A DNA stretch of 64,000 nucleotides from a virus. Of the stretch, positions 25,732 through 39,991 are shown piece after piece (within the stretch, counting starts at the first letter, position 1; each line of letters opens with the position of its first letter). The stretch spans positions 69,234-133,233 of the IMG/VR virus record IMGVR_UViG_3300042319_001830. One strand, 5' to 3'. The notes beneath the pieces are model-generated. The model worked only from the letters and a program-made list of their open reading frames with translations. It searched no databases and had not been told where the DNA came from. Made by a program: the position numbers and the translations under genes.

Positions 25732-26274
25732 ATGAACGTTTTGGATCACTTAAAGAACAGTTCCGTGGACGATATTAAGTCCTACTGTAAAAACAATTGT
25801 ATTGATGCTAGCGTTGCTATGATGCACGTTAATGGCGATTTTAATCTATCCACTTTAGTCCGTAATGCCAACTTCTTTGGCTTCAAGGAAGCAATGTATG
25901 TAGGCGGAAGCAAACAGTGGGATCGTCGTGGTACTGTTGGTACACATCATTATACCGATTTAAATCATCTTAAGACTGAAGAAGAATTCGTACAGTATGT
26001 AAATGATAATGGTTATACACTACTCGCTGTAGAAAACAATATTCCCAAGTATAGTGATAAAACTGTTTCCATATTTAATCACTGGGTATTCAGTGGTGTA
26101 GATAAGCCAATGTTTGTATTTGGCGAAGAAAAGAGCGGATTGAGTGATTACATTCTTGACAATGCTGAAACTGTCATCACTATTCCAGCATATGGTAGTG
26201 TACGATCACTTAACGTGGGTACCACTAGCGGAATTGTAATGGGATTTTATCGCAACTATATTGATAACAATTAA
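25732..26274 (+). CDS. SpoU/TrmH-family (SPOUT) RNA 2'-O-methyltransferase
   Basis: FNLSTLVRNANFFG, FVFGEEKSGL and IPAYGSVRSLNV motifs. Confidence 0.88.
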   Translation: MNVLDHLKNSSVDDIKSYCKNNCIDASVAMMHVNGDFNLSTLVRNANFFGFKEAMYVGGSKQWDRRGTVGTHHYTDLNHLKTEEEFVQYVNDNGYTLLAVENNIPKYSDKTVSIFNHWVFSGVDKPMFVFGEEKSGLSDYILDNAETVITIPAYGSVRSLNVGTTSGIVMGFYRNYIDNN

Positions 26275-27250: not shown

Positions 27251-27538
27251 ATGAAAGATACTACACTCAAACAGTTGGTACGTGACCGCAATGGTCAACC
27301 CCGTGGTATGGTAGTTGCCACAGTAATCGATGGATCTATCCGATTTGGTTGGAGTCATACCAATACAAAAGCGGGTGATCGATTCGATAAATGCAAAGCA
27401 CTCACTATTGCTCTAGGTCGTGCTGAAAATGGTTGGGGTCCAAAAACAAATGTACCTGTTTCAACAATCAAAATTCTAAACAAGATGATTGATCGTTCCG
27501 TTCGATATTACAAAAATGTACCAGTCTACGGTATTTAA
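27251..27538 (+). CDS. Conserved small phage protein
   Basis: GWS.....D.FDK..AL.IA..RA motif. Confidence 0.6.
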   Translation: MKDTTLKQLVRDRNGQPRGMVVATVIDGSIRFGWSHTNTKAGDRFDKCKALTIALGRAENGWGPKTNVPVSTIKILNKMIDRSVRYYKNVPVYGI

Positions 27539-27555
27539 TTTAATTATTCATAAAT

Positions 27556-27888
27556 ATGGACAAGTATATTACTGACAATTTCACGGGGTCAATCGACGAT
27601 CTATTAAATCATTGTACAAACCTTGATATAGATAAAGTTGAAGCGCAAGTAAAAGTCGAAGAAAAAGAAGCTTGTATTCAAATAATTATGAAAGAAGCAA
27701 GCTGTGATGAATCAGAAGCTAATGTCATTTATAACGAAATTCTTTTGACAGAAACAAAAACAACCGTTGACAAAATGGTAGCTGACGGCATACTATATGT
27801 ATCAGGCCATAACGAAGATGGCGAACCACTGTTTAATCTGACCGAACTTGGTAAATCAGTTCGTAACGAACTAAACGACAACAAGTAA
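27556..27888 (+). CDS. Hypothetical protein, wHTH-like C-terminus
   Basis: MVADGIL...FNLTELGK. Confidence 0.55.
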   Translation: MDKYITDNFTGSIDDLLNHCTNLDIDKVEAQVKVEEKEACIQIIMKEASCDESEANVIYNEILLTETKTTVDKMVADGILYVSGHNEDGEPLFNLTELGKSVRNELNDNK

Positions 27889-27903
27889 AAACTATACTAT
27901 AAC

Positions 27904-27984
27904 GCTCCGGTAATGGCGGGGACTTCTAAGCCCTAAGTGCATAATTGGATGAAAATGGGGGTTCAATTCCCTCCCGGAGCGCCA
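27904..27984 (+). tRNA. Atypical D-armless tRNA-Arg(UCU)-like RNA
   Basis: Acceptor GCTCCGG/CCGGAGC, G73, CCA; T-arm GGGGG-TTCAATT-CCCTC; anticodon loop CT-TCT-AA; no D-arm; 22-nt extra region. Confidence 0.65.
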
Positions 27985-28712
27985 TTTCCATAAAGTCTGT
28001 CTATTAAATTCCATCCGTATTTTTTATACATATGTAAATTTTCTCTTTTAGTTTCTTTGGTGATGCCATTCTTTTCAATGATAATTTTCTTTGTATTAGA
28101 ATTATAAAGATGTGTATCTGCGCATACGGTTGTACAGTATTTGTGAATAGAAGTTCTTGGTAAAAATAGTTTGTTACAATGAACACATTTTGTTTCTTTT
28201 GATTCAAATTTTGGTAAAAAATGTTTCTCCCAGTTAATCACTCTGCCAGAAATCCATCCAATAGGAACATTGTCCGTATAAAATTTATTGCTTAATTTTA
28301 ATTCTACATTGTGATACCATTTTTTTCCATAACAACTATTAGATGTACCCGATTGTGAATATGATTGAATTTTACTAAATTCAATTTTCAATTTTTGATA
28401 GATTCTATTATTTATTTTATATTCTCTACATTGATTTTCACTCTTATACCAAGACATTAAAGCAAATGATTTCCACATTTTTTTATATTCTTTTGAAGAA
28501 GGTGGAAATACGGAAGTTAATAAAAGATGACATATATAATGTTCTCTTGCCGTCAATTTAACTAAATTTGAAGAATAATTTGACCCTCCTAAACATTTTG
28601 GAATTATATGGTGGGTTTCTGTATATTGATTTAAGATTGGATTGGTTAAACGATTATTGATTATACGATAATACCAATTTTTATATTTATTGTTCTGTTC
28701 TTCTAAAGTCAT
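27963..28712 (-). mobile_element. Free-standing HNH homing endonuclease
   Basis: ETHHIIPKCLGG...NLVKLTAREHYICHLLL; sits antisense in the tRNA region with its 3' end overlapping the tRNA-like gene. Confidence 0.85.
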
Positions 28713-28828
28713 AATAAAAGTTATTTACTTATAAATATACTTTAGAAGTTGTAAACATATTGTTTTTTGAATGTATTCATATATTTTACATATATATATG
28801 TTACCTCAAAACTTCTCGAAAAAAGAAG

Positions 28829-28875
28829 TTGATCTTTGAAATTTTAGTGGTAAGATAAAAGAGTAGTAAGTAATA
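28829..28875 (+). promoter_or_regulatory. Stable-RNA promoter copy 1
   Basis: TTGATC-16nt-TAAGAT; 29-mer GTGGTAAGATAAAAGAGTAGTAAGTAATA identical in three copies. Confidence 0.7.
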
Positions 28876-28988
28876 AGTATTTTGTTCTTTCAGCACGGTG
28901 GGAGTGGCACTCCTCTAGAACATCTACGTATGGCGGAACTGCCTTGACCTTTAATCAAAGGGAGTCACCAACGAAAGAATGAAAACTT
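28876..28988 (+). ncRNA. Candidate structured ncRNA A
   Basis: GC-rich non-coding island closed by TTCTTTC/GAAAGAA and GGTG/CACC, with four internal hairpins. Confidence 0.55.
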
Positions 28989-28991
28989 AAG

Positions 28992-29049
28992 TTGACTTTA
29001 GAATAAAACGTGGTAAGATAAAAGAGTAGTAAGTAATAGTTCTTTAACA
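28992..29049 (+). promoter_or_regulatory. Stable-RNA promoter copy 2 plus boxA-like motif
   Basis: TTGACT-16nt-TAAGAT, the shared 29-mer, then GTTCTTTAACA. Confidence 0.8.
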
Positions 29050-29058
29050 AATTTTAAT

Positions 29059-29135
29059 GGCCTTGTAGCTCAGTTGGTTAGAGCAGAAGCCTTTTAAGCT
29101 TTTGGTCGTGGGTTCGAGTCCCACCGGGGCCACCA
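29059..29135 (+). tRNA. tRNA-Lys(UUU)
   Basis: Canonical cloverleaf, GAAGC-CTTTTAA-GCTTT, encoded CCA. Confidence 0.95.
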
Positions 29136-29139
29136 TTTT

Positions 29140-29353
29140 AACTGGTAATAAACGAAGTAAATTATATATTGTGGTACTACTACACTTTTTAGTATCGTGA
29201 TTGATTACGAAAGCATTTTTTCCGTGTAAAATTTGACTTTCATCATTAAACAAATTAAATGATTAAACCAAACACAACTGTGTGTCGTGCTGAAAAATGT
29301 CGGTAACACAGCGATGCTTACGTAGATAAGTAACTCAATGAATATTACCAGTT
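29140..29353 (+). ncRNA. Candidate structured ncRNA B
   Basis: 11-bp terminal stem AACTGGTAATA/TATTACCAGTT spans the whole Lys-Glu spacer; several internal hairpins. Confidence 0.6.
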
Positions 29354-29357
29354 TAAC

Positions 29358-29432
29358 GGTCCATTCGTCTATCGGTTAGGACGCTGCCCTTTCAAGGCGG
29401 AGAGAGGAGTTCGATTCTCCTATGGACTACCA
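29358..29432 (+). tRNA. tRNA-Glu(UUC)
   Basis: Cloverleaf, CTGCC-CTTTCAA-GGCGG, CCA. Confidence 0.93.
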
Positions 29433-29443
29433 TTTTATGTTTG

Positions 29444-29596
29444 TCCGTTGCTTAAAAGAAACGGAATGGTGGAGGGTACATAACCAAAATACCCCTAGAG
29501 TTGGAAGTTCTCTTAAAAAACTTCTTGGTTGCGGGGTTAGCAAATGGTATACTTTGTTTGTTGGGTGGATAAAGTATTCAATAATTACACCCAACA
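29444..29596 (+). ncRNA. Candidate structured ncRNA C (hairpin chain)
   Basis: Five consecutive hairpins with possible pseudoknots, between tRNA genes. Confidence 0.45.
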
Positions 29597-29627
29597 CAAT
29601 TTTTAAAATAGTTCTTTAAATTTAAAC

Positions 29628-29702
29628 AGCTGGCGGCAGGTTATTATTTGACGATGGCTCATAACCATTGGTAACTAAGTGAAATTCTTAGGCGAGCGAC
29701 CA
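29628..29702 (+). tRNA. Atypical tRNA-like RNA, anticodon CAU
   Basis: CGATGG-CTCATAA-CCATTG; T-arm CTAAG-TGAAATT-CTTAG; two acceptor mismatches; ACCA end. Confidence 0.6.
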
Positions 29703-29709
29703 TTTCAGT

Positions 29710-29781
29710 GGCTGGGGTTTCAGCAAACGACGAATCCTCATAAGGTTTGTTAAGTGGGGGCAGCACCCATACCAGCTACCA
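29710..29781 (+). tRNA. Atypical tRNA-like RNA, anticodon CAU
   Basis: GGCTGG/CCAGCT acceptor; mini D-arm GTTT-CAGC-AAAC; T-arm GTGGG-GGCAGCA-CCCAT; ACCA end. Confidence 0.6.
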
Positions 29782-29805
29782 TTTTAGTTCTTTAACAAAA
29801 CAATT

Positions 29806-29883
29806 TGCGGGTGAGTGAAACGGAAAATCATTCCTGGCTCATAACCAGTGAGATAGTGGGTTCGACTCCCACACCCGCTACCA
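29806..29883 (+). tRNA. Initiator-like tRNA-Met(CAU)
   Basis: TGCGGGT/ACCCGCT with 1:72 mismatch; CTGG-CTCATAA-CCAG; canonical T-arm; CCA. Confidence 0.85.
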
Positions 29884-29889
29884 TTTAGT

Positions 29890-29983
29890 GGTTCCGTAGT
29901 TTAACGGTAGAACGCAACGCTTATAACGTTGATAAGCTCTAGATTTGAGCACGGTCTCGGTTCGAATCCGGGCGGAACCACCA
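29890..29983 (+). tRNA. tRNA-Ile(UAU) with long variable arm
   Basis: GGTTCCG/CGGAACC; CAACG-CTTATAA-CGTTG; variable hairpin GCTC-TAGATTT-GAGC; CCA. Confidence 0.85.
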
Positions 29984-30058
29984 TTTTTAATAGTTCATTG
30001 AAAATAAAATTAAATTGGTAGACGCTTCTAATGGTAGACGCTACTATTTATTAGTAGT

Positions 30059-30736
30059 ATGAAACCATATGTCTACAAGATAACATCAAAAAATAAAGAA
30101 TATTATTTCGGGGTAAGATGGGGATATATATCAACTCCACAACAAGACTTGTGGAAAGATTATTTTACTTCATCTACATTAGTTCACGAATTAATCCAGA
30201 AAAATGGAAAAGAATATTTTGATGCTGAAATTTTATTTCTTTTTGATTCAAAAGAAGATGCTCTTAATAAAGAAATAGATTTGATAAAATCATCAATGAA
30301 AGATGAAAAATGTCTAAACAGAGCGTGTGGTAAATGTACAATATGGGATGACAATCTTAAAAAAAGAATGACGGAAAATATTAAGAAATTTTACAAAGAA
30401 AATAAAGATATATTAAAAAAATTAAGTGATGCTAAAAAAGGAGATAAAAATCCTAATTTTGGATGTCCGCCGTGGAGAAATGGTTTAGGTCACAAAAAAT
30501 CTTGGGTAAAAGCAATTGATATTTATAATGATTATGTTGTAGAAAACTGGCCTATTTTTGGTAAAAACAAAAAGTCTTACGGAAGAGTCTTCCTAACTAA
30601 GAGATATGGCATAGTTACAGGAACAGCAAGAAAATTGTTGATTTTATTGCAAAATGGTTGGAGTCCATATCAAGATAAAGATTTTCAAGAATTTTTGAAA
30701 AGTCAGTTGACTTCAGAAGAAAATGTGGTAAGATAA
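30059..30736 (+). mobile_element. GIY-YIG (seg-like) homing endonuclease
   Basis: YVYKIT....YYFGVR...YFTSS...E...LN; NUMOD3-like KKLSDAKKGDKNPNFG; inserted in the tRNA array. Confidence 0.82.
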
Positions 30737-30764
30737 AAGAGTAGTAAGTAATAGTTCTTTGTAA
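30707..30764 (+). promoter_or_regulatory. Stable-RNA promoter copy 3 plus boxA-like motif
   Basis: TTGACT-16nt-TAAGAT, the shared 29-mer, then GTTCTTTGTAA; overlaps the endonuclease stop. Confidence 0.78.
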
Positions 30765-30776
30765 CTAATTTTTAGT

Positions 30777-30864
30777 GGGCAAGTGGCGAAATTGGCGAAA
30801 CGCAAGGGACTTAAAATCCCTTACTTAAGAAACGTTGTGGGTTCGAATCCCACCTTGCCTACCA
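30777..30864 (+). tRNA. tRNA-Leu(UAA)
   Basis: AGGGA-CTTAAAA-TCCCT, long variable region, CCA. Confidence 0.92.
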
Positions 30865-30879
30865 TTTTTTGAATTTAAT

Positions 30880-30952
30880 GCGGGTCAGGTGTAAAGAGAG
30901 CACGTTAGTCTACCAGACTAAAAGGCGAAATGCAAAGTTCGGACCCGCTCCA
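30880..30952 (+). tRNA. Atypical tRNA-Gly(ACC)
   Basis: GCGGGTC/GACCCGC, U73, CCA; TTAGT-CTACCAG-ACTAA; degenerate T-arm. Confidence 0.7.
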
Positions 30953-30960
30953 ATTTTAAT

Positions 30961-31036
30961 GCGATATTAGTGTCTATGAGGAGCACGGTGGGCCTTCCAG
31001 TCCACAAGGCCGGTGCAAGTCCGAGATATCGCTCCA
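30961..31036 (+). tRNA. Atypical tRNA-Gly(UCC)
   Basis: GCGATAT/ATATCGC, U73, CCA; anticodon loop is 6 or 8 nt rather than 7; T-loop TGCAAGT. Confidence 0.65.
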
Positions 31037-31045
31037 GTTTTACTT

Positions 31046-31121
31046 GGGTCAATAGCTCAATGGTTAGAGCGTAGAACTCATAATTCTTTGGTTACCGGTT
31101 CAAGTCCGGTTTGACCCACCA
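31046..31121 (+). tRNA. tRNA with CAU anticodon (Ile2/lysidine-type or elongator Met)
   Basis: Canonical cloverleaf GGGTCAA/TTGACCC; loop CTCATAA; CCA. Confidence 0.9.
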
Positions 31122-31133
31122 TTTAAAGTTAAT

Positions 31134-31164
31134 AAAAGCCCCATCATTAATTTGGTGGGGTTTT
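31134..31164 (+). terminator. Terminator of the tRNA operon
   Basis: AAAAGCCCCATCA-TTAATT-TGGTGGGGTTTT. Confidence 0.75.
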
Positions 31165-31190
31165 GTGGTTATTATATTTTGATATTTTGC

Positions 31191-31219
31191 TTGACTGTTG
31201 AGTATAGATGGTATATATT
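31191..31219 (+). promoter_or_regulatory. sigma70-type promoter
   Basis: TTGACT-17nt-TATATT, 10 nt before ATG 31230. Confidence 0.55.
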
Positions 31220-31229
31220 AATAGGTGAT

Positions 31230-31472
31230 ATGGCACATTTTGTAAAACTCTCGGTATTGGATCCTGGTCACGATGATCTTGAAAACACAACAAATAGAAA
31301 ATATAATCCACAGTTAATTAACTTGGATATGGTTATCAACGTTGAGCAATCGAAGGTTCATAGTTTGATTTTTACTAAAAATAACACACAGCATCCTATA
31401 CGAGTGAGAGAGTCTCTTGATGAGATTTTATCTGTATCGATGGGATGTGTTAAAAACGTTTTAAACGGTTAA
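31230..31472 (+). CDS. Hypothetical protein (FlbD-like pattern)
   Basis: MAHFVKL...LINLDMVINVE...IRVRESLDEI; start moved downstream of the terminator and promoter. Confidence 0.55.
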   Translation: MAHFVKLSVLDPGHDDLENTTNRKYNPQLINLDMVINVEQSKVHSLIFTKNNTQHPIRVRESLDEILSVSMGCVKNVLNG

Positions 31473-31475
31473 TAT

Positions 31476-32180
31476 ATGATTAATATAAAAAGCATCAATG
31501 TTTCTTCTTATAAAGAGGAATTTATTAAAAACAGGCGGATTGTAATAGATAATTTTTTAACTGAGGAGTGGGCGGACAAGTTGTATAAGTATTATACGAC
31601 TGAGATGGGCAAAGAATATTGGTCTGCTACATATATGCCTTCGCTTAGGTATGAGGGTGATTGGGAGTGGTGGCAGAATATTTCTGGTAACAGATATGTT
31701 ATGGAGCAGGCGTATCAGCATGCTTGTAATGCTAGAGACAACAATTTGTTTAGTTATTTTTTCTATAAAACGATGCCTAGTATTATGGAGAAGGCTAAGT
31801 CTACTGTTTATGAAGAAACGATGGCATTTTTTAACGGTAAAGAAATGGTTGATTTTATGAATAGTGTAACTGATTTGGATATTACGATAGGAGACAAAAC
31901 GTTTGTTAGTCGTTATGCTGAAAACTGTTTTTTGAGTAATCATACAGATGATGTAAATGGTAAATTGGCGTTTGTGTGTCATTTGACCAAAGATTGGAAT
32001 CCTGATTTTGGTGGATTGTATTTGGATTTGAGAGACAAAAGCAATATTAAGGCGATTAACCCATCTTTTAATAAATTAGTAATATTTGAAGTGACGGCTG
32101 GAGTTGCGCCTCATAGTGTGACACAGATTGTTAATAATTCAAACAAAGAAAGAATCAGTGTATCTGGTTGGTATAATTAA
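31476..32180 (+). CDS. 2OG-Fe(II) oxygenase (prolyl-hydroxylase-like)
   Basis: IDNFL, HTD, GGLY, P.FN.LV.F, HSV and R.SVSGW motifs. Confidence 0.85.
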   Translation: MINIKSINVSSYKEEFIKNRRIVIDNFLTEEWADKLYKYYTTEMGKEYWSATYMPSLRYEGDWEWWQNISGNRYVMEQAYQHACNARDNNLFSYFFYKTMPSIMEKAKSTVYEETMAFFNGKEMVDFMNSVTDLDITIGDKTFVSRYAENCFLSNHTDDVNGKLAFVCHLTKDWNPDFGGLYLDLRDKSNIKAINPSFNKLVIFEVTAGVAPHSVTQIVNNSNKERISVSGWYN

Positions 32181-32193
32181 AAAATAAATTGTT

Positions 32194-32886
32194 ATGTATA
32201 TTCCTGTAGAGCATGAGCATATTCCACTTGTAGTAATTGATAATTTTCTTCCCAGAGATTATGTTACTAGATTATATGAAGATTTTATCAAGTTAAAGCC
32301 ACATTTTGGCATTCCACATTGGAGTGGTGGTTATAATGATGGTGCTGCTTATAATCCGGATGAACCGTTGAGTCCATTGTGTACTGGTCAAGATCTTTGG
32401 TTACCTTTTGAAACAGATCAAGTGGAAAAGAACAAAGATTTGGGTTTTTACGTATCAAATTTAAGCAAATATATTTTTCATCAGGGAATATTAGATTTTT
32501 TAACCCACGCTAAAAATGAACAATTGACTGCGTATGCTAAATATAGATACTTGTATAAGTATCATATCATTAACTATGGTGATGGTGGATATTATAATTG
32601 GCATAGGGATTTGGCGGTTAGTGGAATGACTTGGGATGGTGTAGATGTAAATAAACAAAACGCATTTACATTTGCGCTTACTTTGGTTAAAGATCCTAGT
32701 GTAATGAAAGGTGGAGAACAATACTTTATGTATAAAAATCATACATACAGATTGCCACTTACAAGCAATCAGTTAACAATCTTTCCATCCACAGTGTTTC
32801 ACGCTTGTAGTGAGATTACTGCTCCGAAGGATTTGCCTTGGGAAAACAAGAGATTTAATATGCAAGCTTGGCTATGTCATGGTTGA
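32194..32886 (+). CDS. 2OG-Fe(II) oxygenase
   Basis: IDNFL, YNWHRD, GGE, IFPS..FH and RF motifs. Confidence 0.85.
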   Translation: MYIPVEHEHIPLVVIDNFLPRDYVTRLYEDFIKLKPHFGIPHWSGGYNDGAAYNPDEPLSPLCTGQDLWLPFETDQVEKNKDLGFYVSNLSKYIFHQGILDFLTHAKNEQLTAYAKYRYLYKYHIINYGDGGYYNWHRDLAVSGMTWDGVDVNKQNAFTFALTLVKDPSVMKGGEQYFMYKNHTYRLPLTSNQLTIFPSTVFHACSEITAPKDLPWENKRFNMQAWLCHG

Positions 32887-34004: not shown

Positions 34005-35483
34005 ATGAAGCTATTTAGAGACTTACTTTTAGAGAATCCCGATACTGTATATTATAAGCGAAAGACATATAGTTATACTTCTCCAGCGAATAGATGTGCT
34101 TTTCTTGTATATAAAGATGAAAAGAGTGGTAAAAATGTTATATTTGGATATAGTGTGGTTAAAAAAGATTTTGTTTGTGATGATAGTGATGTATTAAAAG
34201 AACTCAAAGAATTGGAAAATAGTAAAGATGTTAAATATGATTCTAATAATAGAGATCAATTAGATTATTGGGCACAACAGGGTATTAAGAATTTAAAAAA
34301 TGGAAATAATGGTGGCGGTCATTTACAATTGGAGAATATTTTAAAAGGTATGGGTAGATTTGGTGCTTATGCTGATCCACTTTTGAAGGGTAGAATATTT
34401 GAAGTTGATGATGCTAAAGATGTGGTTGATGATTCTGATTTAAAGATTGAGAGTACAATACCCAGTGGCAAAGCTATTATTGTAACATTCTGGGATGCTA
34501 GAAGAGAAAAAATAATTAAATATAAAGATCAATATGAAAAAGTAATAGAGTTCAATGGATATGACCCCAAAGAATGTTTGTATGAACCAAGCCTCAAATT
34601 TTATACTTATACTGAATTTTATACCAATGAAGAACCCAAATCAATTGAATCTAAACCTGTTCAACCACTTGCTGGTACCAAAGCTTCAGATAGTTTCAGC
34701 GTGGGTGATAAAGTAAAAGTTAAAGGAATGAATGTTGATGGAGTGGTATTATCTGTCAGCGCAGCTAATACTATTAAATTAAAAGTAAACAAGTCAGATT
34801 TAAAAACTGTACCTGTTGGTTCTGAATTTGATTTTCCATATTATGGTTTACAACTTGATACCAGTCATACTACAAAATTCAAAGTGGGTGATAAAATAAG
34901 ATTAAAAGGTTTACCTGATATGACTGGTGACGTAACGCATGTTGATGGTAATCATATTACTATTGAAATAACAAGTTCAAAATATTCATTTGGTGCGTTT
35001 AGACAAGGAAGAGCTCTTAAAATACTAGCTTCTAGTGCGGAACTTGTTCAACCACAATCAGATGATACTGTGGCTGCTTCAGCCAAGCTTGATAAAGTGA
35101 TTGATGATAAGACTCAAGAGTTTGTTGAAAAACGAGGTAAATTACATTCAACTGGTGCTACATTTACTCCAGCGGAAAAACAAAATTTAGAAAATGAAGT
35201 GGATAGTTTAGAAATTGAAATCAAGATACTAAATGATTTATTGACTTCGGGTGAAAAGTATTATACAGACAATGTAAAAGACGTTGTAGCTACATCTGTA
35301 CAACGTAAGTTGGATGCTAAACAAAAAGAAAAACAAGATAGATATAGTTTGATAGCCCAAGCTGAAAAGCAATATGGTATGCCTATTGCACAAATAAGAC
35401 AAAAGTATAGAAATGTGCCATTGGATCAATTGGTTAAGAAAGAATCATTATATAAGAAACTATTGAAAGCATTACGAGGATGA
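34005..35483 (+). CDS. Modular protein with two KOW/SH3-like repeats and a coiled coil
   Basis: FSVGDKVKVKG...GVV and FKVGDKIRLKG...GDV; N-terminal MKLFRDLLLE. Confidence 0.55.
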   Translation: MKLFRDLLLENPDTVYYKRKTYSYTSPANRCAFLVYKDEKSGKNVIFGYSVVKKDFVCDDSDVLKELKELENSKDVKYDSNNRDQLDYWAQQGIKNLKNGNNGGGHLQLENILKGMGRFGAYADPLLKGRIFEVDDAKDVVDDSDLKIESTIPSGKAIIVTFWDARREKIIKYKDQYEKVIEFNGYDPKECLYEPSLKFYTYTEFYTNEEPKSIESKPVQPLAGTKASDSFSVGDKVKVKGMNVDGVVLSVSAANTIKLKVNKSDLKTVPVGSEFDFPYYGLQLDTSHTTKFKVGDKIRLKGLPDMTGDVTHVDGNHITIEITSSKYSFGAFRQGRALKILASSAELVQPQSDDTVAASAKLDKVIDDKTQEFVEKRGKLHSTGATFTPAEKQNLENEVDSLEIEIKILNDLLTSGEKYYTDNVKDVVATSVQRKLDAKQKEKQDRYSLIAQAEKQYGMPIAQIRQKYRNVPLDQLVKKESLYKKLLKALRG

Positions 35484-36496
35484 ATACAAAGAAACTTAGA
35501 ATTTTTGATTTTGATGATACGCTTTTTGAAACAGAAGCTAAAGTTATTATTACTTCAGCCAATAATACTAGTAGACAAATTACCCCGGCTGAATATGCTG
35601 TATATGAACCATTGCCAGGTGATAAGTTTGATTTTAGTCAATTTAATGCTATTATTAATCCTACATTGATTCGTTCAATTGCTAAGCGATTTTATAAAAT
35701 AGTTACATCTACGGATGGTGGTCGTAAGAGTGTGATATTGACGGCTAGGGGATCTGAAGCAGCACCACACATAAAAGATATAATTAGAAAGTACTTTAGA
35801 GTAAACATTGAGGTGGTTACATTGGGCACTGGTGATCCTATGGCCAAAGCTAATTGGATATTGAACAAGATACAAAATGAGGGTTACAATGATATATTCT
35901 TTGTGGATGATAGCAGCAAGAATATATTGGCTACTTATAGAACTATTAGTAACTTGCCTATTAAGTATAAGTTAGTTGATATTACTACCCCAAGAAAATA
36001 TGAGGGTAACAATCTTCCAACTACTAATAGTTTAACTGAGATGTTAAAGAATGTGGTTGATAAAGAAAGAATTAAGAAGGCTTATAAGTATTTTGTGAAT
36101 AAGTTGAATCTACCCAGTGGAAAAATTAAATTAGAATTTGGTAGTTTAGATGGCGATGTACAGGGTAAAGTAAAAGTTGAGGGAGATAAAAATCCATATA
36201 AAATAAAAAGTTATGTGGTTATAATGCGCACAAACAGTCCACATAGTAGTGATGATCAGATCAAGACTTTGGCGCACGAGTTGCATCATATTAGACAGGT
36301 GGAGGATGGTAGATTGAATGTATTTGAAAATAGTTGGGATGGTAAAGTTTATCCTAAATATGACGACGATGATCCCAAAGAAAGAATGTTGCCTTGGGAG
36401 ATTGATGCTCGAATGAATGCCGAGACATTGTATGTGGAATATAACAGATATGCTAGAGAAAAAGGTGCGACTACCAAGATTATAAAGATTAAATAA
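35480..36496 (+). CDS. HAD-family phosphatase fused to a zincin-like domain
   Basis: IFDFDDTLF, LTAR, K and FVDDS; then AHELHH..Q...PWEIDA. Confidence 0.75.
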   Translation: MNTKKLRIFDFDDTLFETEAKVIITSANNTSRQITPAEYAVYEPLPGDKFDFSQFNAIINPTLIRSIAKRFYKIVTSTDGGRKSVILTARGSEAAPHIKDIIRKYFRVNIEVVTLGTGDPMAKANWILNKIQNEGYNDIFFVDDSSKNILATYRTISNLPIKYKLVDITTPRKYEGNNLPTTNSLTEMLKNVVDKERIKKAYKYFVNKLNLPSGKIKLEFGSLDGDVQGKVKVEGDKNPYKIKSYVVIMRTNSPHSSDDQIKTLAHELHHIRQVEDGRLNVFENSWDGKVYPKYDDDDPKERMLPWEIDARMNAETLYVEYNRYAREKGATTKIIKIK

Positions 36497-39769: not shown

Positions 39770-39991
39770 ATGGCTTATATTTTAGTAAATACAGGATCTA
39801 TAGCTAATAGTGATACTGCTGATACTATCAGAGTTGGTTTTCATAAAGTGAACAGTAACTTTATTAGTTTAAACACTAGTGGTATTACCAGTTCGCTTAA
39901 TTTGGCTGGTGCTGCTGGAGGTAGTAGTGGATATTATTTACCAATAGTTATAAATGGCACCACGTACAAAATAGTATTGAACAATAATTAG
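39770..39991 (+). CDS. Small virion protein with baseplate-wedge-like N-terminal motif
   Basis: VNTGSIANSDTADTIRVGFHKVNSNF resembles the N.G...NDGTGD..R..F.K.N.NF motif. Confidence 0.55.
   Translation: MAYILVNTGSIANSDTADTIRVGFHKVNSNFISLNTSGITSSLNLAGAAGGSSGYYLPIVINGTTYKIVLNNN

Follow-up and report, generated by a model that had tools for sequence, protein, structure and literature searches.

What is the 214-nucleotide (nt) element that lies between tRNA-Lys and tRNA-Glu in the tRNA array of a lake phage? The element (positions 29140-29353, here termed RNA B) belongs to a 64,000-nt segment of a phage genome, positions 69,234 to 133,233 of the IMG/VR record IMGVR_UViG_3300042319_001830, which was analysed as a whole and is referred to below as the window. 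A preliminary description, made from the letters alone, had proposed a new class of structured RNA with a long terminal stem, several internal hairpins and two possible pseudoknots, set free by tRNA maturation. Comparison with related phages gave a different answer. RNA B is dispensable, strain-variable and non-coding, an insertion/deletion polymorphism of 215-219 bp (base pairs) that ends in 11-bp inverted repeats and is flanked by a short duplication. The new fact at this locus is a clean presence/absence polymorphism with transposon-like ends.

The site is filled in the window, in five IMG/VR contigs and in three metagenome contigs. Three variants of the element were recovered, all between the same two tRNAs: that of the window, that of contig L052 (3 differences) and the L010-type (12 differences over 214 nt). 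Ten viral DNA contigs lack the element and have a 7-nt spacer from tRNA-Lys to tRNA-Glu. Seven of these, all from IMG/VR, carry the tRNA-Lys allele of the window, followed by the empty site CCACCATTTTAAC and the GG of tRNA-Glu. Their joint (GGGGCCACCATTTTAAC-GG) leads into either of two tRNA-Glu alleles, both of which also occur with the element (in L052 and L010). In the remaining three (L011, L012 and L015), which have another tRNA-Lys allele, the alignment jumps from 29142 to 29347 and the empty site reads CCACCAATTTAAC-GGAGTC, that is, tRNA-Lys, 7 nt and tRNA-Glu. The window and L052 carry an insert of 215 nt; that of L010, L036, L003 and L005 has 219 nt. Filled and empty contigs share only 46-90% identity in their 400-nt flanks, the tRNAs excepted.

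In the window the sequence TTTAAC stands on both sides of the insert, at 29137-29142, where it corresponds to the 7-nt spacer TTTTAAC of element-free strains, and again at 29352-29357. At the latter position the L010-type has TTCATTTAAC, which is 4 nt longer and holds a second CATTT(T) copy; its right junction reads CCAGTT-CATTT-AACGG and repeats the CATTTT found to the left of the element. Two descriptions can be given of these junctions. An exact 6-nt direct repeat, TTTAAC, around an element with 8-bp inverted ends would fit. It would be more economical to assume a CATTTT/CATTT duplication, one T short, around exactly 214 nt with perfect 11-bp ends, the window having later lost 4 nt of the right copy.

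The terminal stem noted in the preliminary description was confirmed. The left repeat, AACTGGTAATA (29140-29150), pairs perfectly over 11 bp with the right repeat, TATTACCAGTT (29343-29353); both are invariant in all three variants, and 4 nt (TTTT and TAAC, respectively) separate them from the tRNAs. With one mismatch allowed, the pairing extends to 14 nt (29137-29150 with 29343-29356). Chance does not account for this stem: only 1.5% of 1000 dinucleotide shuffles of the element contained, at any position, a perfect one of at least 11 bp, and in a comparison of 29 distinct inter-tRNA spacers of 60-450 nt, taken from the window and 13 related loci, the ends paired over 11 bp in the three RNA B variants and over 3-8 bp in the other 26. 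A third exact AACTGGTAATA at 39883 was taken as chance; it sits in an apparent small coding frame among GGT-rich genes.

Between the repeats lies an A+T-rich, non-coding interior (29151-29342, plus strand; 31.2% G+C), whose local hairpins are no better than chance. The element contains no plus-strand open reading frame (ORF) of at least 40 amino acids, and its sole ATG frame, 15 codons in the window and 24 in a relative, shows three replacements and a lost stop; a small protein product was rejected on these two grounds. An antisense RNA was likewise set aside, no minus-strand promoter-like site being found nearby. The G+C content of the whole element is 30.8%, compared with 35.1% for the window, 50-56% for the tRNAs, 44.2% for the nearby spacer RNA A and 27.5-28.3% for two homing-endonuclease-like ORFs beside the array.

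How widely does RNA B occur? Searching positions 27500-32500 with cmscan at E values up to 1 gave no Rfam family for the element, GOLLD, ROOL, RtT and introns included; the only match touching it was HPnc0260 on the minus strand (36.5 bits against a gathering threshold of 59, E 0.23). Blastn with 11-letter words found no match to the element in GenBank phages and plasmids, and a wider GenBank query returned only tRNA parts among the 40 matches listed, with no record covering 80% of the query. A scan of IMG/VR for the two ends with a gap between them found five contigs, mutually identical across the element, and two internal patterns led to the same five. A 32-letter word had no matches in IMG/VR (the relatives differ within it). 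Left-end and right-end words, aimed at a longer parent element, retrieved the same five contigs and an unrelated coding stretch (L076) that agreed in the query letters only. In metagenomes an 18-letter word hit 46 stretches, three of them homologous, one possibly the same record as an IMG/VR contig. Species genomes scanned with the two ends yielded three contigs from Bacteroidota metagenome-assembled genomes with neither interior similarity nor tRNAs, which were taken as chance (about one was expected by our estimate). An nhmmer profile of the three variants recovered the orthologous site only, in the 64-kb window and all related loci, and apparent extra copies in two other records were only 14-15-nt chance matches. 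The word scans depend on exact runs of 18-28 letters and would miss homologues less than roughly 90% identical. At this reach, the element appears only in a narrow clade of lake phages, in near-identical copies 94-99% alike; the diverged homologues expected of a conserved RNA class did not emerge.

How much of a fold lies between the paired ends? All internal stems and both loop complementarities listed in the preliminary description are present at the positions it gave, except that CGTGA/TTACG has its C29196 in common with GGTACTA/TAGTATC. The whole element folds at -44.9 kcal/mol with a z-score of -2.06, 9 of 200 shuffles being as good, and the opposite strand is its equal (z -2.37), but only owing to the symmetry of the terminal stem. 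The interior alone, however, has a z-score of -0.34, with 72 of 200 shuffles as good, a result that is not decisive by itself, minimum free energy z-scores being weak tests (the neighbouring spacers RNA A and RNA C score -1.24 and -1.41, and T4 rnaD -0.83). The centroid structure of the interior retains two hairpins and a 3-bp remnant. Stems of at least six pairs, G-U included, number 44 against 52.2 ± 7.1 in shuffles, and stems of at least eight pairs 6 against 8.1, so that an 8-bp A/T-rich pseudoknot partner is to be expected by chance. The z-score of the whole element derives from the terminal stem, which carries all of the folding signal; the listed hairpins and A/T-rich pseudoknot partners are the chance yield of an A+T-rich sequence of such length.

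Variation among the three copies points the same way, within narrow limits. No compensatory change was seen in the 57 pairs of the proposed structure, both pseudoknots included, or in the 62 pairs of an RNAalifold consensus, a comparison of three variants 94-99% alike that has almost no power to detect covariation. The consensus replaces the local hairpins with long-range pairs and differs in topology from the single-sequence fold, and the L010-type folded alone adopts yet another topology. Six variable columns fall on paired positions of the proposed structure (five break the pair, one turns G-U into G-C) and six on unpaired ones, so pairing does not shield a position from change. Three uncompensated broken pairs lie in GGTACTA/TAGTATC (at 29190, where the three variants have T, A and G, and, in the L010-type, at 29175 with T>G and at 29178 with T>A), and TGCTGA/TCGGTA has two broken pairs and the G-U to G-C change. 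No change falls in the terminal stem, in the remaining hairpins or in the partners of either pseudoknot, which is uninformative either way. What little signal the available variation holds goes against a fixed internal fold. Neither the double pseudoknot nor the new structured RNA class is supported by these results, and no covariance-model match links the element to GOLLD or ROOL. Of the three outcomes that the preliminary description had named as counting against it, two, a fold no better than shuffled sequence and a lack of conserved homologues, are largely what we found.

We give about even credence to the view that RNA B is an accessory insert in the Lys-Glu spacer, similar in its workings to a transposable element of the miniature inverted-repeat type (MITE), that is co-transcribed with the tRNAs, closed by its own ends and excised as a by-product of tRNA maturation. 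On this account, a short insert with inverted repeats would have entered the 7-nt spacer TTTTAAC by a transposition-like insertion. Lying inside the tRNA operon, it would be transcribed together with the tRNAs, and its inverted ends would pair in the transcript (over 11 bp, or 14 with one mismatch) and loop the insert out. No more than 8 nt would then lie between the 3′ end of tRNA-Lys and the tRNA-Glu 5′ end, a gap of 7 nt in the empty strains. Because the ends of the element abut two tRNAs, an RNase P cut at tRNA-Glu and 3′ trimming of tRNA-Lys should release a by-product RNA of about 214-222 nt, which the closing stem may protect. By analogy with the general tRNA maturation pathway, the 3′ end of the spacer RNA would arise where RNase P cuts at the tRNA-Glu 5′ end. 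Besides the presence/absence pattern and the ends, this reading is favoured by the end pairing peculiar to this spacer, the missing structural signal in its interior, a G+C content near that of the two endonuclease-like ORFs, and the cover of the element by RNA-library contigs.

MITEs, in the portion of the literature drawn on here, are 50-800 bp long in prokaryotes, end in inverted repeats no shorter than 10-15 bp, are accompanied by 2-10-bp duplications and are rare in phages (PMC11602168). RNA B agrees with them in size (214 bp, non-coding), in its inverted repeats (11 bp, perfect and invariant) and in the empty sites of its relatives. Its duplication is ambiguous: TTTAAC is exact but overlaps the left repeat, and CATTTT and CATTT in the L010-type are one T apart. 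Across the viral, metagenome, species-genome and GenBank scans, all of which need exact words, it was found at one site only, and no parent was found. For these two reasons, we do not file the element as a MITE but describe it as working like one.

Several observations weigh against this reading. Every copy occupies the same site, with no second copy in the 64-kb window or any related locus, and the end-word scans of IMG/VR brought up no parent that combines these ends with a transposase. The duplication is unclean: to take TTTAAC, which is exact, is to accept 8-bp repeats that are offset by 1-5 nt, and to take the 11-bp repeats is to accept CATTTT/CATTT. A precise deletion by slippage between direct repeats would produce identical empty sites, and the direction of the event is therefore not established. 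The RNA libraries, although they speak for the reading, are of limited help. Metatranscriptome contigs cover the element in three of four libraries, at word depths of 44.4 in X15 (29137-29357, a 251-nt contig), 35 in X17 (29113-29386) and 2.87 in X18 (29185-29350), and such contigs record presence only, giving no RNA ends, strand or level, in libraries where DNA may also occur. X16 has the empty-site form only, with 29146-29321 uncovered, which is not evidence against transcription. Lastly, conservation is clearly higher in the element than around it. A comparison of the window with the L010-type gives 94.4% identity for RNA B (202 of 214 positions), close to tRNA-Lys (96.1%) and above the promoter regions (84-88%), 29611-29790 (87.8%), RNA C, the spacer after tRNA-Glu (73.3%), and tRNA-Glu itself (69.3%). 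This is the strongest point for a function, and it is equally expected of an insert that spread recently.

That island of conservation, together with the mere three differences from L052, leads to a distinctly less probable but serious alternative, in which RNA B is an accessory gene of the phage tRNA operon that encodes a functional small RNA. Such an RNA, comparable to T4 RNAC and RNAD or to tRNA-spacer sponge RNAs, would be released by processing, stabilised by its stem and active through long invariant single strands, by base-pairing or protein binding, with no ornate fold. Its retention in lineages whose flanks have diverged as far from the empty-site contigs as described above is consistent with this proposal. 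The contig depths of 44.4 and 35 exceed those of most array contigs in two of the three element-bearing libraries, a weak hint at best, as depths cannot rank parts of the array. There is also precedent: T4 rnaC and rnaD lie beside tRNA-Arg and the GIY-YIG gene segB, and the present array has a SegE-like GIY-YIG ORF. The T4 products are described, in the sections of the two papers used here, as small RNAs of a phage tRNA cluster whose function is still unknown (PMC3014915, PMC9697503), and 3′ETS-leuZ, in the account consulted, is a functional excised spacer RNA (PMC8166272). Against a small RNA gene, the element is dispensable, being absent from ten sister DNA contigs; no homologue was found outside one narrow clade, and there is no Rfam match, no interior fold signal and no covariation. 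One predicted hairpin (helix 2) has taken three uncompensated changes. The G+C content lies below the genome mean, unlike that of the other RNAs of the array, and the best BLAST match of 29136-29357 to the T4 tRNA region has an E value of 0.21, that is, no sequence similarity.

A bolder proposal, which we consider improbable, is that RNA B is a site-specific mobile RNA cassette that targets the tRNA-Lys tail and is expressed and excised by the tRNA-processing enzymes of the host. It might spread among co-infecting lake phages either selfishly or because the released RNA helps, for example against a defence aimed at tRNA-Lys, and it might belong to a broader group, as yet undescribed, of inter-tRNA elements clamped by inverted repeats. 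The right end of the element, ACCAGTTTAAC, equals the tRNA-Lys tail, ACCATTTTAAC, at 10 of 11 positions, and the match is broken in the L010-type; we treat this tail-like match as a lead only.

Also improbable is a purely local origin, in which a decayed cassette, such as a former tRNA or a foreign spacer, was swapped in by illegitimate or endonuclease-stimulated recombination between cassette-end motifs (ACCA-TTTT and so on). The array is indeed a mosaic in which other cassettes come and go. L003 and L005 lack about 28925-29029, and contigs from the RNA libraries join 29536 to 29624 (skipping 87 nt), 29618 to 29798 (179 nt) and 29709 to 29787 (77 nt). Recombination of this kind would also suit the ACCATTT with which all six tRNAs end, the resemblance between ACCAGTTTAAC and the tRNA-Lys tail, and the two homing-endonuclease-like ORFs that flank the array or lie inside it. 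It leaves unexplained the perfect 11-bp inverted termini, which were seen in no other spacer of these arrays, and the tail-like match is interrupted at the L010-type junction. A decayed tRNA was rejected as a source, since neither ARAGORN nor the Rfam tRNA model (E up to 1) found a remnant. In a separate observation, the 179-nt joint lies between two copies of TAGTTCTTTAA (D11).

Splicing of an intron-like RNA to give a joined tRNA-Lys/tRNA-Glu form deserves next to no credence: contigs of three of the four RNA libraries (X15, X16 and X18) do show a joint from 29136 to 29352 (skipping 215 nt, with six letters that fit either side), but their 19-24 further differences from the window downstream assign them to other strains, no group I or II intron family matched, and the joined form exists as DNA in the seven IMG/VR contigs with the same tRNA-Lys allele and the three with another, which excludes splicing as the explanation.

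Should the MITE-like insert prove correct, RNA B would be a natural example of a small insert accommodated in a tRNA operon at little cost, its paired ends restoring the spacing seen by the processing enzymes, and it would add to the few transposon-like elements seen in phage genomes. Should a small RNA gene be the answer, the phage tRNA operon would hold an accessory RNA specific to certain strains, from a class whose function has been unknown since T4 RNAC and RNAD were discovered. The locus also advises caution, as paired ends alone do not make a spacer beside phage tRNAs evidence of an ornate RNA.

The setting is that of a freshwater phage. The window encodes a lysozyme domain, an SNF2-type helicase, fibre-like proteins, a SegE-like GIY-YIG endonuclease ORF and a weak HNH-like one, and several uncultivated viral contigs of up to 171-184 kb are about 85% identical to it in DNA. 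Sequencing runs that contain the stretch are lake-water or freshwater metagenomes (14 DNA runs with 96-99% of its words and 6 RNA runs with 25-43%). ARAGORN places six tRNAs within 29059-31121, and their shared ACCATTT ending forms repeat family D1. The left neighbour of the element is tRNA-Lys(UUU) with an encoded CCA (29059-29135, plus strand; Rfam tRNA, 73.7 bits), identical to the L010-type at 74 of 77 positions. To the right, also called by ARAGORN on the plus strand, lies tRNA-Glu(UUC) (29358-29432; 56.4 bits). Upstream of tRNA-Lys, a promoter-like site, TTGACT-16-TAAGAT (28992-29019, plus strand), agrees with the consensus at 9 of 12 positions and has TG before the -10 box; it is the presumed start of a transcript that would bear the element. 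Its core is repeated at 30707-30734 and in repeat family D2. No plus-strand terminator-like site was found ahead of 30136, which is downstream of tRNA-Glu.

Neighbouring spacers and tRNA-like units offered further observations. A 5′ part of RNA A (28888-28897, TTTCAGCACG) is perfectly complementary over 10 nt to 29286-29295 of RNA B (CGTGCTGAAA; I10). In the L010-type, three transitions (AC>GT in RNA A and C>T in RNA B) turn three of these pairs into G-U wobbles. The complementarity may well be chance, as the same 2.6-kb region holds five perfect inverted repeats of 10-11 nt. RNA C (29435-29539) matches the wcaG RNA motif RF01761, but below threshold (33 bits, gathering threshold 42, E 0.0019), and its 73% identity to the L010-type is accompanied by 33 gapped positions. 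A tRNA-like sequence at 27904-27981 scores 28.6 bits against the Rfam tRNA threshold of 29 and was not called by ARAGORN. In the Rfam alignment, tRNA-Ile(UAU) at 29890-29983 carries a 21-nt insertion at the variable region, and L010 and L011 have the same 94-nt form. In L006 (5644-5722), a tRNA-Glu-like unit comes after tRNA-Lys; it retains the acceptor stem, the CTTTCAC loop and ACCA, its T-arm being replaced by CGGGGCAGCACCG. This odd arm recurs, as GGGGGCAGCACCC, in a CAU tRNA-like unit of the window (29753-29784; D3).

The tRNAs themselves vary among the sister phages (the window, L010, L052, L011 and L069-L075), where the anticodon stems of tRNA-Glu and tRNA-Lys differ by paired, stem-preserving swaps. 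The anticodon stem-loop of tRNA-Glu, a tRNA 69% identical overall, occurs as GCC-CTTTCAA-GGC, GGA-TTTTCAC-TCC and TCC-CTTTCAC-GGA. That of tRNA-Lys changes its stem from AAGC/GCTT to TTCG/CGAA, the remainder of the molecule being nearly invariant. This looks like fast compensated evolution of the anticodon arms, as could be expected under attack by a host anticodon nuclease.

The wider tRNA-centred neighbourhood (25732-26274, 27963-28712, 30059-30736, 31476-32886 and 35480-36496) includes genes for a SpoU-family RNA methyltransferase (E 2.6e-22), two 2OG-Fe(II) oxygenases and a protein whose N-terminal part is polynucleotide-kinase-like. The position of the weak HNH-like and SegE-like GIY-YIG ORFs, flanking the tRNA array or inside it, recalls that of T4 segB inside a tRNA cluster.

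How does RNA B compare with known systems? RtT RNA of the E. coli tyrT operon (RF00391), which tRNA maturation excises from a polycistronic transcript, is built from an inverted and a direct copy of a tRNA tail. This design is faintly echoed by the likeness of ACCAGTTTAAC to ACCATTTTAAC, but the tail copy in RNA B spans only about 10 nt, and no RtT match to the element was found at E values up to 1. The mycobacteriophage element MPME1 carries a small ORF; RNA B is half its size, has no conserved ORF and occupies one site. In the published description, as far as it was available, MPME1 is 439 bp long, inserts at several sites and adds 6 bp at one end (PMC3029335). From the same source, MPME1 and MPME2 resemble RNA B in being ultra-small mobile DNA of phages, present or absent between close relatives, with short inverted repeats (IR-L and IR-R).

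Among RNAs, T4 RNAC (species 1) and RNAD (species 2) are close in arrangement: non-tRNA RNAs of a phage tRNA cluster with a GIY-YIG gene, a few nt from the tRNAs and presumably freed by tRNA-processing enzymes, according to the genome record and the relevant parts of two papers (NC_000866; PMC3014915, PMC9697503). They differ from RNA B in sequence; RNA B has a tRNA on each side and is missing from sister strains. T4 rnaC also has a strong fold (z -4.57) and, as read from its sequence, a tRNA-like T-arm, in contrast to the interior of RNA B (z -0.34), which has no tRNA-like part. 3′ETS-leuZ of E. coli is cut from a polycistronic tRNA transcript by tRNA maturation, as RNA B would be, but in the excerpted account it is 53 nt long and acts with Hfq (PMC8166272). 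GOLLD and ROOL are likewise phage-borne non-coding sequences beside tRNA genes; in the sections of the source used here they are several hundred nt long, compared with 214 nt, and RNA B differs from them in having no Rfam match, no covariation-supported multi-helix fold and no diverged family (PMC12286853).

The comparison with MITEs cuts both ways. Unlike them, RNA B is found at one site, in one copy per genome; neither an autonomous parent nor a family of multiple copies in host-like genomes turned up, and its duplication is imperfect or ambiguous. Like them, it is a short non-coding element (214 bp) with 11-bp terminal inverted repeats, a short direct duplication on both sides, intact empty sites in its relatives and ends that fold back on each other when transcribed.

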